A DNA stretch of 64,000 bases, taken from the sequence record PQ341120.1. The stretch is one strand, 5' to 3'. The stretch is from Escherichia phage EAWsc9. The translations under genes were made by a program, and so were the position numbers. The notes beneath the pieces are model-generated. The model made no database searches, was not told the origin of the DNA, and was given only the letters and a program-made list of their open reading frames with translations. This document shows, piece after piece, positions 26,323-47,859 of this stretch (its first letter is position 1; each line of letters starts with the position of its first letter).

Positions 26323-27069
26323 ATGATTTTATCCGGAAGAACTGTTGATGAACTCAATGAAAAAGTCCAGGCTGCCTTGGCTAATAATTGGTATTTGTTT
26401 GGTTCTACTATGGTGTTGCCGAATACCCCTACAGATAGCAAAGAGCGTTTTTTCCAAACTATGTCCAGCTCGGAAACTCAGATACCGGGCCCGCCTGGGC
26501 CAAAAGGAGACCCGGGTGTACCAGGACCAAAAGGAGACCCAGGCGGGGATGGAAAGTCTTCTTATCAGATATGGCTTGACTTGGGAAATACAGGAACTGT
26601 TGATGATTTTTTAACTGATACAGCAGGAAAGAGGGAAAAATCCGAGGTGTTTTGGAGTGGTATAAACGTTCTATTAACTAATGGTACGACTTCAAACATA
26701 ATTAGTGTTTTAAAGGGGATTCCACCGACTGCAGGGACTCTATCTCCGTTTTTTAGAACCACTGATGATAAGTTGTGGCCATATAACCAAGACAGAAGCC
26801 TAATGTTTAAACTCAACCTTATTGGTAATTTTGCAGGAGCCTCGCAAGCTCGAAGTATAACATTAAATTTCGTTGGAACCAACGGAAACACTTATATACA
26901 GAATCGTCCGGAAAATGCTACAGATATTTTGTCTTTTACAACGTTCTTTAGCATTGATAAAGATGGGGCAATGGCAACCAATGGTACAGCTATAACTGTT
27001 ATGCCAAATGGCGGCAACTTTACAATAACCTCTGCATTGTTAGTAGCCGAACAAACAGTGACTTCATAA
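26323..27069 (+). CDS. Collagen-like repeat protein with fibre-type C-terminal domain
   Basis: 248 aa plus-strand ORF; AGGAG 6 nt upstream of ATG; eight G-X-Y triplets (GPPGPKGDPGVPGPKGDPGGDGKS) then S-x-Y-Q-I-W-L motif typical of phage fibre proteins. Confidence 0.7.
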   Translation: MILSGRTVDELNEKVQAALANNWYLFGSTMVLPNTPTDSKERFFQTMSSSETQIPGPPGPKGDPGVPGPKGDPGGDGKSSYQIWLDLGNTGTVDDFLTDTAGKREKSEVFWSGINVLLTNGTTSNIISVLKGIPPTAGTLSPFFRTTDDKLWPYNQDRSLMFKLNLIGNFAGASQARSITLNFVGTNGNTYIQNRPENATDILSFTTFFSIDKDGAMATNGTAITVMPNGGNFTITSALLVAEQTVTS

Positions 27070-31360: not shown

Positions 31361-31636
31361 TTATAATCTTTTAAATTTGAAGCAATACATTGCAAATAAA
31401 TCAGAAAAATGTCTATCAACCCATATTCTTTGCACTGGACTAGTAACAGTCAGCATATAATGTGATTTTTGTAAATTTATTCCATTTTTATTCGGGCATT
31501 CTTTATTAACAGAATGGTACGTGCTTGCTACTATTTCAATTTCCCTTTCATATCTCTCGCTATCTGTTTGTGTGGGAATAAATGCAATTCCAGCAATAAC
31601 AAAAATAGAGATATACGTCCAAACCTTGTATACCAT
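31361..31636 (-). CDS. Hypothetical secreted/membrane-anchored protein (rI.1 position)
   Basis: 91 aa with N-terminal hydrophobic segment. Confidence 0.5.
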   Translation of the reverse strand: MVYKVWTYISIFVIAGIAFIPTQTDSERYEREIEIVASTYHSVNKECPNKNGINLQKSHYMLTVTSPVQRIWVDRHFSDLFAMYCFKFKRL

Positions 31637-31643
31637 GCGAACC

Positions 31644-32216
31644 TCAGCTTGTTAATTCGAGCCAATGTTTTCTGCATAAAGATACGTACGATTCATTCCC
31701 ACCGACTAACACTTGCTCGCCGTCCTTTACAGCAGCACCGTCGATTACTCTCGCGGTCATGGTTGCTTTCCGGCCGCAATGACAGACGCCCTTTAATTCA
31801 ACCAGTTTATCCGAAATAGCCAGAAGTCTGGCTGAACCGGGAAATAATTGACCCCGAAAATCTGTTCTTAACCCGTAACACATAACGGGGATATTGTAAT
31901 TATCAACCACTTGAGCTAACTGGTCAATTTGCTCTGGTAACAAAAATTGAGCTTCATCGACCAGGACACAGTGGATATCCTTTTGAGACTCGGCCCATTT
32001 ATAGAATTCAAACAGGTTCATGTCGGCCGTTACCAGGTTTGCTTCCTGGCTAATACCAATACGTGATTTAATTTCAGATTCCGAGTCCCGATTATCAATA
32101 ACAGGTTTTAGCAAAAGCACGCTCATTCCACGCTCTTTATAGGAATAAGCTGCAGTCAGCAATGAAGCTGTTTTGCCTGCATTCATTGCTGCGTAATGAT
32201 AAATTAAACTCGCCAT
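31644..32216 (-). CDS. tk: Thymidine kinase
   Basis: 190 aa; P-loop AAMNAGKT, C-terminal zinc ribbon CHCGRKA; similar to T4 Tk. Confidence 0.92.
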   Translation of the reverse strand: MASLIYHYAAMNAGKTASLLTAAYSYKERGMSVLLLKPVIDNRDSESEIKSRIGISQEANLVTADMNLFEFYKWAESQKDIHCVLVDEAQFLLPEQIDQLAQVVDNYNIPVMCYGLRTDFRGQLFPGSARLLAISDKLVELKGVCHCGRKATMTARVIDGAAVKDGEQVLVGGNESYVSLCRKHWLELTS

Positions 32217-32225
32217 ATCACCTTC

Positions 32226-32411
32226 TTAAAGCGTATTCACATAAGCTATTAATTCGTTTTCTTTCGCATCAAATCGATTAGCAAATTCTTCTTGCTGTTC
32301 GGGAGATAGCGGGCCATATTCATCGTAAAAAGCGTTTGCTTCTGCATGCTCTTCTAAAAGCTCATGGATAAGCTCAAACAATCTACTTTTCTGACTAATA
32401 CTTAAACTCAT
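32226..32411 (-). CDS. Hypothetical small acidic protein
   Basis: 61 aa ORF. Confidence 0.4.
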   Translation of the reverse strand: MSLSISQKSRLFELIHELLEEHAEANAFYDEYGPLSPEQQEEFANRFDAKENELIAYVNTL

Positions 32412-32614
32412 TTCGGTTCACCATATCGCACAAATTTAGGATGTTCGCAATAACCAGAATGAAAACCTTCGCCTTTATGGTTAATGCACCCTTTATTGGA
32501 ACAGTACCACCAGTAATCGAATTCGCAATTCATTTCATCATTGCATAAAGCTGCGATTACTGGCCATTCGCATTTTTCACATTTGGCCGTTTTAAGAATT
32601 CGGGCTTGGCTCAT
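32408..32614 (-). CDS. Hypothetical Cys-rich small protein
   Basis: 68 aa with eight Cys. Confidence 0.45.
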   Translation of the reverse strand: MSQARILKTAKCEKCEWPVIAALCNDEMNCEFDYWWYCSNKGCINHKGEGFHSGYCEHPKFVRYGEPK

Positions 32615-32773
32615 AATTCAATTCCGTCCATAGCCAAAATTCTTTTTCGTTGGGCCTTGAGAGCTTCATTAGCCCGGTCATAATCTTCTTGACTACCGCT
32701 AGGCTGTAAAGCCGCTACTTTTTTGGCCAAGTGAATAAGCTTATCCAAGTTTTCAACAATACGTTCTTGTTCT

Positions 32774-33238
32774 TCATTCAGTCTCATAATCCACCACTAT
32801 TAAATCAATATCAGGAGTAAACATGTCGATTAATTTAGAAACCTTTTCCCAATCTCCACCTGCAATACCACAACCAATGCGAGGAATGTAAATTACCGGT
32901 TTAAACAAAAGGGTTTCTGCTTGTAGATTTAATTCTATCATACAATTTACTAAAGCACCATAATCAAGATTAGGGCCCGGTTCATATTGGGTGTACAAAT
33001 TATAACACATACCAAACCCAGTAGGTTTATGTTTAAAAACAATAGACATATCGCCTAATTTATCACGAGAACCATATTCAGTAGTGGTTTTATCTATTTC
33101 TAAAACTTTTGGATAAGCCTTCGCCAACTGTCCAGCTACACCAGAACCCATTGTGTGGAAGCAGTTGCAACCATGAGCAATAATATTGCCTTGAAGAAAG
33201 AGGGCGACGATATCGCCCTTAATATACTGGGTAATCAT
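32774..33238 (-). CDS. Macro-domain protein (ADP-ribose binding/processing fold)
   Basis: 154 aa; KGDIVAL...N-x5-GSGVAG and IPRIGCGIAGG align with macro-domain GDIT / N-x5-GGGV / G-I/V-x-G motifs. Confidence 0.5.
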   Translation of the reverse strand: MITQYIKGDIVALFLQGNIIAHGCNCFHTMGSGVAGQLAKAYPKVLEIDKTTTEYGSRDKLGDMSIVFKHKPTGFGMCYNLYTQYEPGPNLDYGALVNCMIELNLQAETLLFKPVIYIPRIGCGIAGGDWEKVSKLIDMFTPDIDLIVVDYETE

Positions 33239-33594
33239 TTAGAGTTCAATCCTCTATTATATGAATCCACTAACCTGTCAACCATACTGGTGCAGGCCGC
33301 CTTATATTTTGCACTTGAAAGAATGCAATCCATTTCAAATAATTTCTTTTCATATTTGTTGGATAATACATTCTTTTTCAAAAGTGTATGTTCAACATCA
33401 TTTTGACCATCTTTATATGCCGCGGTGAGCTTGGCGCTGAACTGGATTACACAATCCACATTGCTTGGTGCGCAATAATCTTTAGCCGTCCTCGTTGCAT
33501 ATTCTATGATGCTGTTGTTGTCATCGCTCTGTACTGAAGCTATTCCTCCCATGCTGAATACTAACCCTATGGCTAAAGTGATAACTCTTACCAT
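33235..33594 (-). CDS. Hypothetical secreted protein
   Basis: 119 aa with cleavable-looking signal peptide. Confidence 0.5.
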   Translation of the reverse strand: MVRVITLAIGLVFSMGGIASVQSDDNNSIIEYATRTAKDYCAPSNVDCVIQFSAKLTAAYKDGQNDVEHTLLKKNVLSNKYEKKLFEMDCILSSAKYKAACTSMVDRLVDSYNRGLNSK

Positions 33595-33596
33595 TT

Positions 33597-34139
33597 TTAA
33601 TCCACCGTTTTTAATAGGCCTCGTGATTTTAAGTAGTTAGCTTTTTCTAGGACCTGTGAAGCATACGTATTACCAGCTTTCACATTCCATCCTGCGTTAT
33701 ATGATGATAGTGTTTTCCTTATATCCCCCTTATGAATATTCAACCAGTATGAAAGCTCAATGTAAGCCCAGCGTGCACTGTTCTCTCTCTTGCTTATCAT
33801 TTTGATTATTTCTTTATCTGTCATTGTCCACCCAACCTGTTTCACGCGTTCGCGCACGGTTGGAAGATAATTTTGGAATATACCATATGCATGATGCTTA
33901 TCTTTATTTAATCCAGTATTAATCCCAGCAGAACTCTCCTGCCAGGTTAAACCAGCCATGATATATCCCAAACCATTATGTTGGTGCGGATTTTCTTTGT
34001 ACTTACCATTTTTCTGGAACTGTTCTCCAAACGCATAAGCATATTGGAGGTTTTCCATTTGTTCATTACTGAAAGTAGGCTCTACGCTATGGGCAGACAT
34101 ACTAACTGTCAATAGTAAGGTGGCGATTACTTTTTTCAT
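33597..34139 (-). CDS. Secreted lytic-transglycosylase-like protein (SLT-like)
   Basis: 180 aa; signal peptide MKKVIATLLLTVSMSAHS; catalytic-type E-S...AYGIFQ motif. Confidence 0.45.
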   Translation of the reverse strand: MKKVIATLLLTVSMSAHSVEPTFSNEQMENLQYAYAFGEQFQKNGKYKENPHQHNGLGYIMAGLTWQESSAGINTGLNKDKHHAYGIFQNYLPTVRERVKQVGWTMTDKEIIKMISKRENSARWAYIELSYWLNIHKGDIRKTLSSYNAGWNVKAGNTYASQVLEKANYLKSRGLLKTVD

Positions 34140-34149
34140 GAATTCCCCA

Positions 34150-34608
34150 TTAGATATAAATCACTTTTGTGCTAATTTTTCCTTCCAGACGATTAGAGTT
34201 AACAAACGCCATACGACAACACATGGTCGGAGACTTCCCAGGAATAGCGGGGTTAACTGTCATTCCTAACCATAGGTTCTTGTCCGTGATTTCCAGACGA
34301 AGTGGACGGTAGTTCACATTCGGGTCAATTTGTGCTTCAACTTCCGGGAGTGGTTTCATCTCCAAGAATTCAACGATTTCTTTTACATGTGGTGTGATTT
34401 TTCCAAACAAGTCAAAAACATATTGTTCATCAATTTCACGTTGGATTGCACGGTCCAACAGGTGCGGACTGTACTTAATGAAGAATGCTTCAAGGCCTGC
34501 TTCTTTACAAGCCTTGTTGATAGCATTATTAATTTTGAGGAACTCCGTTTCAAAAATGCGACGAAGTTTATTGCGGCGAATGTAAACACTTGAATCGATA
34601 GTAGTCAT
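34150..34608 (-). CDS. regB: RegB endoribonuclease
   Basis: 152 aa from internal ATG with AGGAG; MTTIDSSVYIRRNKLRRIFETEF...HLLDRAIQREIDE colinear with T4 RegB. Confidence 0.88.
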   Translation of the reverse strand: MTTIDSSVYIRRNKLRRIFETEFLKINNAINKACKEAGLEAFFIKYSPHLLDRAIQREIDEQYVFDLFGKITPHVKEIVEFLEMKPLPEVEAQIDPNVNYRPLRLEITDKNLWLGMTVNPAIPGKSPTMCCRMAFVNSNRLEGKISTKVIYI

Positions 34609-34664
34609 GATTATCTCCTTTTGTTTGATGGGATAATCATAACTCATTTCAATCTGCTTGTACA

Positions 34665-35244
<580 letters not shown>

Positions 35245-35248
<4 letters not shown>

Positions 35249-35463
35249 TTCACTTCCTCATCAGATGCAGTATCATATTCTACCAAACGAAGGCCATCAT
35301 ATCCGCCACGAACAGAGATATACGTACTCGGATAAACAATTTCTTTACCATTCCATTGGCCACCGTCCCAACATTCCATAAAGCCTTGTTCGCCCTGTTC
35401 GTGGAACCAGTCAACAAACAGCTTCAGAGCTTCTTCAGAACCTTCAATTGTCAATTTAGACAT
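35245..35463 (-). CDS. Hypothetical acidic small protein
   Basis: 72 aa ORF. Confidence 0.5.
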
Positions 35464-35752
35464 ATTTTTTCCAATCAGAAATCATATGAATCTCTTGGTC
35501 ATAAGTCAAGAGACTACGAGTAATAATACCCTTACAAGGCCCAGAGATGAACTCGAGAGTAAAGTAAGGAACCTGTTTCATTAATCGGATACTTGGAGCA
35601 TGACATCTAAAACGAGAGCCCTTAAAGGGCCCCGACATGAATACATATTCTAATGGATAGAAATAAGCATATTCAAAATTTGTAGTAAGGTCCTCTCTTC
35701 GGACCTTACGTGAGAAATAGCAGAACTCAAAAAGTTCTTCATCAGTCATCAT
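35456..35752 (-). CDS. Hypothetical protein
   Basis: 98 aa ORF. Confidence 0.5.
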   Translation of the reverse strand: MMTDEELFEFCYFSRKVRREDLTTNFEYAYFYPLEYVFMSGPFKGSRFRCHAPSIRLMKQVPYFTLEFISGPCKGIITRSLLTYDQEIHMISDWKKYV

Positions 35753-36276
35753 TGCATTCCTATCACAAAGAACAGTGGCAGAGGTTTAGAACCTTGGCAC
35801 ATAAATTTATTCATCATTGTCTGATAAGCTTCATAGAACTTATCCATCGCTGGTAGGCGAATAGGCTCTTCAATAATAATCAATAATCGGGTAACAGATA
35901 GTCCACGGTACTTGTGAAAATTATCTTCGTCTAAAAATGAACGAACAGTATCATATACAACAAACCCCGGTCGTTCAACATTAAGATGTGGTTGAGCTTT
36001 AGAAACCCGTTTTATTATATTACAGATTTCTCGTGAGCGATGCGAAGAACTCGACATAACAATCACATCATTACCCTTAGAAACCCAATCCACAGCAAAC
36101 TGTGCAATGGCACTTGTTTTACCTGTTTGTCTTCCGCCGTCAAGTCTAAGAGTACCAAACTCTTGCATTCTTGAAGCGGGTTCATACCAGGCGTATTGGT
36201 CTGAATCTAAGCGTTCAATGGCGCGTTCAGCGAAGGCGTGCATTAAGGTTAGATAAATTGGAGTTAAAAATTTCAT
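35749..36276 (-). CDS. Small P-loop NTPase-like protein
   Basis: 175 aa; Walker A-like GGRQTGKTS and hydrophobic-D/E stretch LLIIIEE. Confidence 0.45.
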   Translation of the reverse strand: MKFLTPIYLTLMHAFAERAIERLDSDQYAWYEPASRMQEFGTLRLDGGRQTGKTSAIAQFAVDWVSKGNDVIVMSSSSHRSREICNIIKRVSKAQPHLNVERPGFVVYDTVRSFLDEDNFHKYRGLSVTRLLIIIEEPIRLPAMDKFYEAYQTMMNKFMCQGSKPLPLFFVIGMQ

Positions 36277-36425
36277 AGTTGTCTCTTAATTGTGGGGCCG
36301 TTCCTTGGCACATTAATTCATCCCTTTCTGCATTTACCCATTACCGCACTTGGGCTCGACCTTATTACAGGTTGGTGGGAGTCCCTCACAGAATTGTGAG
36401 GTCCAGGTTGCTCCCCATTTAATTA

Positions 36426-36686
36426 TTACGCTTTACCGCCGGAAACAATACCAAAGGTCTCAAAGTCCCATTCAATATCATCAACATCAACTTTCTTACC
36501 AGCAACCACGAATGCGATTTCGCGACGTTTTGCATAGGTGACAATTTCTTTACCATCACCACCAAAGAAAGAATAACCATTGCGCTTCATGGTGCCAAAG
36601 TCTTCAGCATCGCCAGCAAAGGCGCGAACTTTAAAAGCACCAGTAGGAGCTTTGGCTTCTGTGATAAATTCTTGATAAGTTTTCAT
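36426..36686 (-). CDS. Internal protein (IP-type, capsid-targeting N-terminus)
   Basis: Start set to internal ATG giving MKTYQEFITEAKAP...; T4 IP capsid-targeting consensus MKTYQEFIAEA; own early promoter upstream. Confidence 0.7.
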   Translation of the reverse strand: MKTYQEFITEAKAPTGAFKVRAFAGDAEDFGTMKRNGYSFFGGDGKEIVTYAKRREIAFVVAGKKVDVDDIEWDFETFGIVSGGKA

Positions 36687-47706: not shown

Positions 47707-47783
47707 TGGTCGGGGTGGTGGGATTCTAACCCACAACCTACGGTTTAGAAGACCGTTGCTCTATACAATTGAGCTACACCCCG
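47707..47783 (-). tRNA. tRNA-Arg (anticodon UCU)
   Basis: Hand-folded cloverleaf: acceptor 7 bp, D stem gctc/gagc, anticodon stem acggt/accgt with loop cuUCUaa, T stem gtggg/cccac, encoded CCA; unusual D-loop and T-loop (U19/A56). Confidence 0.7.
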
Positions 47784-47859
47784 GGTGGCCCCATCCGGAC
47801 TTGAACCGGAAACCTGCCAGTTATGAGCCGGATGCTCTAACCAATTGAGCTACAGGGCC
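47784..47859 (-). tRNA. tRNA with anticodon CAU (Met or lysidine-modified Ile)
   Basis: Hand-folded cloverleaf: acceptor ggccctg/tggggcc, D-loop aattggtta, anticodon loop cuCAUaa, T arm tccgg-ttcaagt-ccgga; 3' end encodes CC only; abuts tRNA-Arg. Confidence 0.7.

Follow-up and report, generated by a model that had tools for sequence, protein, structure and literature searches.

Orphan antitoxin-like erasers carried by phages have precedents in AdfN of T4 (PMC11825919) and in gp104 of PhiKZ, a stand-alone macrodomain protein, also named AdfM, for which removal of DarT2-made ADP-ribose from DNA has been demonstrated biochemically and which protects against the DarTG2 system (PMC13309987). T4 lacking both adfA and adfN is still DarTG2-resistant, so that a further anti-DarTG2 factor was to be expected (PMC11825919). 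In a November 2025 preprint, a T4 transposon library on a DarTG2 host gave tk.4 as its single significant hit, and a clean tk.4 knockout sensitised T4 to DarTG2; the gene was renamed adfM, for 'anti-DarT factor macrodomain', and a predicted similarity of Tk.4 to Mycobacterium tuberculosis DarG was noted (bioRxiv 10.1101/2025.11.20.689424). Here we describe what is, by sequence, the tk.4 ortholog in a 64,000-nucleotide (nt) stretch of Escherichia phage EAWsc9 (PQ341120.1), called the window below. It is an ATG-started open reading frame (ORF) at 32774..33238 on the minus strand (TGA stop included in the coordinates), and it encodes a single-domain macrodomain protein of 154 amino acids (aa). 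The gene is already known: the A1pp/macro domain was noted in Tk.4 orthologs in 2006 (PMC1524935), the gene is annotated in GenBank, and the role of the T4 ortholog was assigned in 2025. Tk.4 protein is also among those detected in the proteome of a T2 infection (10.64898/2026.06.19.733364), and the CmdTAC paper holds no test of a T4 macrodomain.

Macrodomain identity and orthology to T4 Tk.4

The first-pass annotation, made from the letters alone, had read the product as a macrodomain protein on the strength of three motifs, all of which are present in the translation in the order it gave (codons checked against the window sequence). K7-G8-D9-I10 lies near the N terminus, N25 is followed after five residues by G31-S32-G33-V34-A35-G36, and a second glycine loop runs I118-P119-R120-I121-G122-C123-G124-I125-A126-G127-G128. 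The call proved right by profile, predicted fold and conserved loops. Pfam Macro (PF01661) matches nearly end to end (profile positions 2-117 of 118) at E = 5.6e-8, its 33.2 bits exceeding the gathering cutoff of 22, and PHROG 335, labelled 'phosphatase', matches at E = 4e-70. As a single sequence the protein finds the solved macrodomains Bt_1257 (8e-11), Poa1p (1.5e-9), SCO6735 (4e-7) and human TARG1 (2e-3), and a profile of 108 homologs finds Bt_1257 (4e-19), TARG1 (2e-16), SCO6735 (3e-16), Poa1p (2e-14) and the DarG macrodomains (4e-12 and 2e-10). Structure prediction, proposed earlier as a check, gives a confident macro fold: the AlphaFold2 (AF2) model built on the 108-homolog alignment has a predicted local distance difference test score (pLDDT) of 95.4 and a predicted template modelling score (pTM) of 0.90, and shows the three-layer alpha/beta/alpha architecture with two glycine-rich ADP-ribose-binding loops (N25-x5-G31-S-G33 and G122-x-G124-x-x-G-G). 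The macrodomain identity of the product is thus confirmed, far above chance. Its nearest sequence and structure neighbours fall within the ALC1-like or TARG1-like class (TARG1, DarG, SCO6735, Poa1p); sequence comparison places it in this TARG1/DarG/SCO6735 ('ALC1-like') class, and ADP-ribose binding is predicted.

The approximately 6 kilobases (kb) around the gene are 92-98% identical to T4-like coliphages across all or nearly all of their length, with Shigella phage SP18 (Straboviridae, Tevenvirinae, Gaprivervirus) at 93.6% over ~6 kb. T4 Tk.4 (155 aa) aligns to the window protein without a gap at 57% identity over 152 residues, and the order regB, vs.1, vs, tk.4, tk.3 ... tk, with tk.4 between vs and tk.3, is common to T4, SP18 and the window. 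Because the ungapped identity coincides with the same gene order as in T4 and SP18, we assign the gene as the syntenic ortholog of T4 tk.4 (adfM) in an SP18-like T4-type coliphage. The two proteins share H22, N25, N80, Y82, Q84, G122, G124 and W130, whereas the phosphate loop reads GCGIAGGDW in the window protein and GAGIGKGNW in T4 Tk.4.

Of 50,697 phage records, 2,756 carry a homolog, under labels that vary between 'phosphatase', 'macro domain-containing protein' and 'hypothetical'. RefSeq names tk.4 'phosphatase' (NC_014595.1, NC_000866.4), and the T4 record mentions an 'A1pp phosphatase motif'. This widespread label stems from the transfer of a domain name and is probably misleading. In phage ECML-359, a 99.4% identical gene (OL631482.1 53886-54347) sits under a feature called 'vs: valyl-tRNA synthetase modifier'.

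The only PADLOC match of the protein is to DarG, the DarTG2 antitoxin (PDB 5M3I, 5M31/5M3E, 7OMU), at 4.8e-7 (1.3e-9 for T4 Tk.4), and it covers positions 4-143 of 329, the macrodomain part only. The NCBIfam DarG model is likewise matched over positions 3-138 of 338, with 28.3 bits against an equivalog cutoff of 250. We found no darT beside tk.4, whose neighbours are vs and tk.3. With no C-terminal DarT-binding domain, a score far below the equivalog cutoff and no adjacent darT, identity as DarG was rejected. The one bacterial homolog examined, from Pelagimonas, also stands alone without an adjacent DarT.

Active site, proposed role and alternatives

Three segments of the gene, delimited by conservation and profile alignment, carry the predicted active site.

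33131..33175, minus strand: codons H22-G36, with H22, N25 and the first ADP-ribose-binding loop, N-x5-G-S-G-V-A-G.
32987..33001, minus strand: codons N80-L-Y-T-Q84, the strand with the predicted key glutamine.
32849..32884, minus strand: codons P119-W130, the second (phosphate-binding) loop, P-R-I-G-C-G-I-A-G-G-D-W.

H22, G23, N25, C26, G33, A35, N80, Y82, Q84, P119, G122, G124 and W130 are each invariant in 108 of 108 homologs. Residue equivalences were drawn by aligning reference sequences to the family hidden Markov model (HMM), a register that is supported because it reproduces exactly the published numbering of TARG1 (K84/D125) and SCO6735 (H24/N27/K34/Q85/G126/G128). A plain MAFFT alignment of six divergent macrodomains was discarded, as it misplaced the strand with the catalytic residue (NLYTQ against GIYKD).

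In the HMM register, Gln84 aligns with Gln85 of SCO6735, Gln82 of Bt_1257 and Lys84 of TARG1; Lys80 of DarG marks the same catalytic-lysine position (PMC9411070). Ala126 takes the place of TARG1 Asp125, so that the acidic partner is absent as well. The catalytic pair Lys84/Asp125 of human TARG1 (OARD1) is therefore Gln84/Ala126 in the window protein, and Lys80 of DarG is replaced by glutamine; the TARG1/DarG type of site is not present. The residues of the SCO6735/Bt_1257 subclass are all present: glutamine at the catalytic position, His22 and Asn25 (SCO6735 His24 and Asn27), and Gly122 and Gly124 (SCO6735 Gly126 and Gly128). Streptomyces coelicolor SCO6735 (PDB 5E3B) and Bacteroides Bt_1257 (2FG1/2AFC) are also the best sequence and structure matches, at ~31% identity, and like the window protein they are single-domain proteins without a paired DarT gene and with glutamine for the catalytic lysine.

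SCO6735 strips DarT-made ADP-ribose from DNA thymidine in vitro, more quickly than DarG or TARG1, is inactive on guanosine-linked ADP-ribose (dG-ADPr) and saves E. coli from DarT; its Q85A mutant is inactive and N27S almost so (PMC9411070). Taken with these data, the conserved Gln84/Asn25/His22/Gly set makes an SCO6735-type mechanism the likeliest, and we predict catalysis by that scheme and not by the TARG1/DarG one. In this reading DarT2, the toxin of the host's DarTG2 system, ADP-ribosylates thymidines in single-stranded phage DNA and so blocks replication. The phage macrodomain would bind the ADP-ribose moiety in the cleft between its two glycine loops and hydrolyse the thymine-ribose bond, restoring unmodified DNA. 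Gln84, held by Asn25, would orient the distal ribose so that water can attack it, in a site that lacks the catalytic lysine.

We therefore take the product, with good though incomplete confidence, to be a counter-defence enzyme, antitoxin-like but orphan, that frees the thymidines of phage DNA from the ADP-ribose attached by DarT2. Among the three roles that the first-pass annotation had suggested, reversal of host ADP-ribosylation is the only one backed by evidence, namely the DarTG2 sensitivity of the T4 knockout, although the likely target is thymidine in phage DNA and not protein. Plating of a knockout on a host with an ADP-ribosylating toxin, which it had proposed as a check, has already been done in T4, where the knockout was sensitised to DarTG2 (bioRxiv 10.1101/2025.11.20.689424). 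The need for tk.4 in DarTG2 resistance is shown in T4; the phage of the window presumably uses its ortholog in the same way, and enzymatic removal of ADP-ribose from DNA is the mechanism we infer.

Several points weigh against this assignment. The DNA-positioning residues Lys34 and Lys89 of SCO6735 correspond to Ser32 and Glu86 in the window protein. The extended 'mobile loop' is missing from it too: in the bacterial proteins SCO6735 and Bt_1257 this loop is 5-6 residues longer than in the phage protein, which in Bt_1257 shows as an insertion of 6 residues against the family, and it exceeds the loop of TARG1 and DarG by about five residues. The window protein is acidic, with an isoelectric point (pI) of 4.97 against 5.93 for T4 Tk.4 and 9.5 for SCO6735 in a comparison by whole-protein pI only, and because of this its DNA binding would have to work in another way or be weak. 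Besides acting as a hydrolase, SCO6735 interacts directly with DarT and thereby inhibits it (PMC9411070), so that a non-catalytic contribution is possible. In the T4 work, removal of ADP-ribose from DNA is said only to 'seem likely' and no enzyme assay is reported (bioRxiv 10.1101/2025.11.20.689424). That evidence is a preprint; it attaches the DarTG2 phenotype to T4 Tk.4 alone, while the window ortholog is known from sequence and is only 57% identical.

PhiKZ gp104, which performs the proposed reaction, is a remote relative: BLASTP returns short patches, and hhalign gives a probability of 95% at ~23% identity. Its gene sequence encodes a DarG-type P-T-K motif, where the window protein and T4 Tk.4 have T-Q; P-T-K falls two residues out of register in both hhalign and hmmalign, and we draw no residue equivalence from it. 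A further difference is that gp104 is imported into the phage nucleus. Macrodomains appear to have been recruited for this task separately in the T4-type and the PhiKZ lineages, and the name AdfM was given to these two remotely related macrodomains independently (PMC13309987; bioRxiv 10.1101/2025.11.20.689424).

A different substrate, namely a soluble ADP-ribose derivative such as ADP-ribose-1''-phosphate, O-acetyl-ADP-ribose or an immune signal like the gcADPR of Thoeris, is improbable but is the strongest of the competing explanations. PHROG 335 and RefSeq both call the family 'phosphatase', and TARG1 chains are deposited under O-acetyl-ADP-ribose deacetylase. Yeast Poa1p, which the protein resembles in sequence, is a phosphatase acting on a soluble metabolite; phosphatase activity on ADP-ribose-1''-phosphate is putative for the phage protein. 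A general argument from comparative genomics also favours a soluble substrate (PMC9503650). Against this, the NCBIfam O-acetyl-ADP-ribose deacetylase model matches weakly, reaching 13 bits where the cutoff is 291. Transfer RNA repair by Pnk and Rnl1 of T4 leaves no 2'-phosphate behind, and for this reason we know of no phage-specific source of ADP-ribose-1''-phosphate. DarTG2 sensitivity is, moreover, the only T4 tk.4 phenotype in the preprint (bioRxiv 10.1101/2025.11.20.689424).

Slightly less probable again is a mainly non-catalytic mode of protection, in which the protein would bind DarT2 and inhibit it, or would shield or sequester the ADP-ribosylated sites. In vitro, DarT is indeed inhibited by SCO6735, DarG and TARG1 even when these are catalytically inactive, most strongly by SCO6735 (PMC9411070). 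The C-terminal domain with which DarG binds DarT is, however, missing from the window protein, and the strict invariance of Q84, N25 and H22 across the 108 homologs argues for selection for chemistry.

T4-type phages have three ADP-ribosyltransferases, and an eraser encoded alongside them would be a natural partner, as the earlier suggestion that the protein regulates the phage's own enzymes implies. That the protein regulates or reverses what Alt, ModA and ModB do to host proteins, be it ADP-ribosylation or RNAylation, is nevertheless very unlikely, because the Alt/Mod products are linked to arginine, a modification undone by hydrolases of the ARH type but not by TARG1-like macrodomains, and because tk.4 transposon read counts fell specifically when DarTG2 was present (bioRxiv 10.1101/2025.11.20.689424). 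The substrates of SCO6735 and TARG1 are Glu/Asp-linked and thymidine-linked ADP-ribose (PMC9411070), and tk.4 has no alt or mod gene beside it: alt, modA and modB, like adfN (30.3), are located beyond the part of the genome that the window covers.

Gene neighbourhood and other features of the window

Around the macrodomain gene, the following ORFs were assigned.

33597-34139, minus strand: vs.1, upstream neighbour of vs.
33235..33594, minus strand: vs homolog (valyl-tRNA synthetase modifier), annotated by synteny with SP18 and T4.
32611..32787, minus strand: tk.3-like ORF of 58 aa, by synteny with SP18 and T4.
32408-32614, minus strand: small ORF between tk.3 and tk, Pfam Phage_zn_bind, E = 2.6e-29.
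32226-32411, minus strand: small ORF between tk.3 and tk, Pfam DUF7438, E = 2.4e-15.
31644..32216, minus strand: tk, thymidine kinase, transcriptionally downstream of tk.4, Pfam TK, E = 5.7e-58.

Transcription runs along the minus strand through regB, vs.1, vs, tk.4, tk.3, the Zn-binding ORF, the DUF7438 ORF and tk, in that order. The earlier description of the gene as lying downstream of tk thus holds in window coordinates only; in transcription tk.4 is upstream of tk. RegB, thymidine kinase and antiholin are confirmed among the neighbours by Pfam scans. The start codon of tk.4 overlaps the TGA stop of vs in an ATGA read from the window sequence, and the final 14 nt of tk.4 overlap the start of the tk.3-like ORF, overlaps that place the gene inside a tightly packed transcription unit. 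GAGGA lies 11 nt 5' of the start. The Phage_zn_bind and DUF7438 ORFs share a transcript with the macrodomain gene. A scan of 31400-36500 for sigma-70-like sites returned 15, against 14.7 +/- 3.6 in shuffled sequence, and hence no excess, a result that does not bear on expression.

Within tk.4 itself, a GC-rich, terminator-like hairpin, AGGGCGATATCGTCGCCCT then CTTTCTTCAA, occupies 33201-33219 on the minus strand and begins 20 nt after the start codon. Its T-run is weak, and the palindrome has probably arisen by chance; an effect on the initiation of translation or on the stability of the mRNA is possible.

The first residues of the vs homolog form a hydrophobic stretch resembling a signal peptide (MVRVITLAIGLVFSMGGIASVQS), which is odd for a modifier of a cytoplasmic enzyme, and the N terminus of vs.1 is signal-like too. 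Neither has a Pfam match at E <= 0.01; relatives are annotated as SLT/lytic transglycosylase. In T4, vs is the most strongly depleted gene in minimal medium (HIDEN-SEQ preprint, bioRxiv 10.1101/2025.11.20.689424).

Elsewhere in the window, a 248-aa ORF at 26323-27069 runs on the plus strand while the ORFs around it are on the minus strand. It matches the tail needle knob domain of the Sf6 type (PF16532, E = 2.6e-32) and, weakly and below threshold, a collagen repeat; both the place and the orientation of this knob-like protein are unexpected for a T4-type genome. Only two tRNA genes are present, adjoining ones for Arg(TCT) and Met(CAT) at 47707-47859 on the minus strand; T4 has eight.

Implications for the T4-type AdfM family

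Beyond the proposed removal of DarT2-made ADP-ribose from thymidine, we hold out a speculative, rather unlikely possibility for the family as a whole. The Tk.4 clade may form a distinct, mostly phage-borne TARG1-like branch, Gln-type, short-looped, acidic and without the DNA-positioning lysines, whose substrates extend past DarT2-modified thymidine and which may depend on a co-factor from the phage, as seems to be so for AdfN. If so, its substrates might include uracil-linked ADP-ribose on RNA and the products of other host ADP-ribosylating toxins, and Tk.4 would be a broad-spectrum eraser and not a dedicated anti-DarT2 factor. The Gln-type site of the T4-type AdfM points to Q84 and N25 as informative point mutants, and for the annotation of these genes we suggest 'anti-DarT factor macrodomain (AdfM)' in place of 'phosphatase'.
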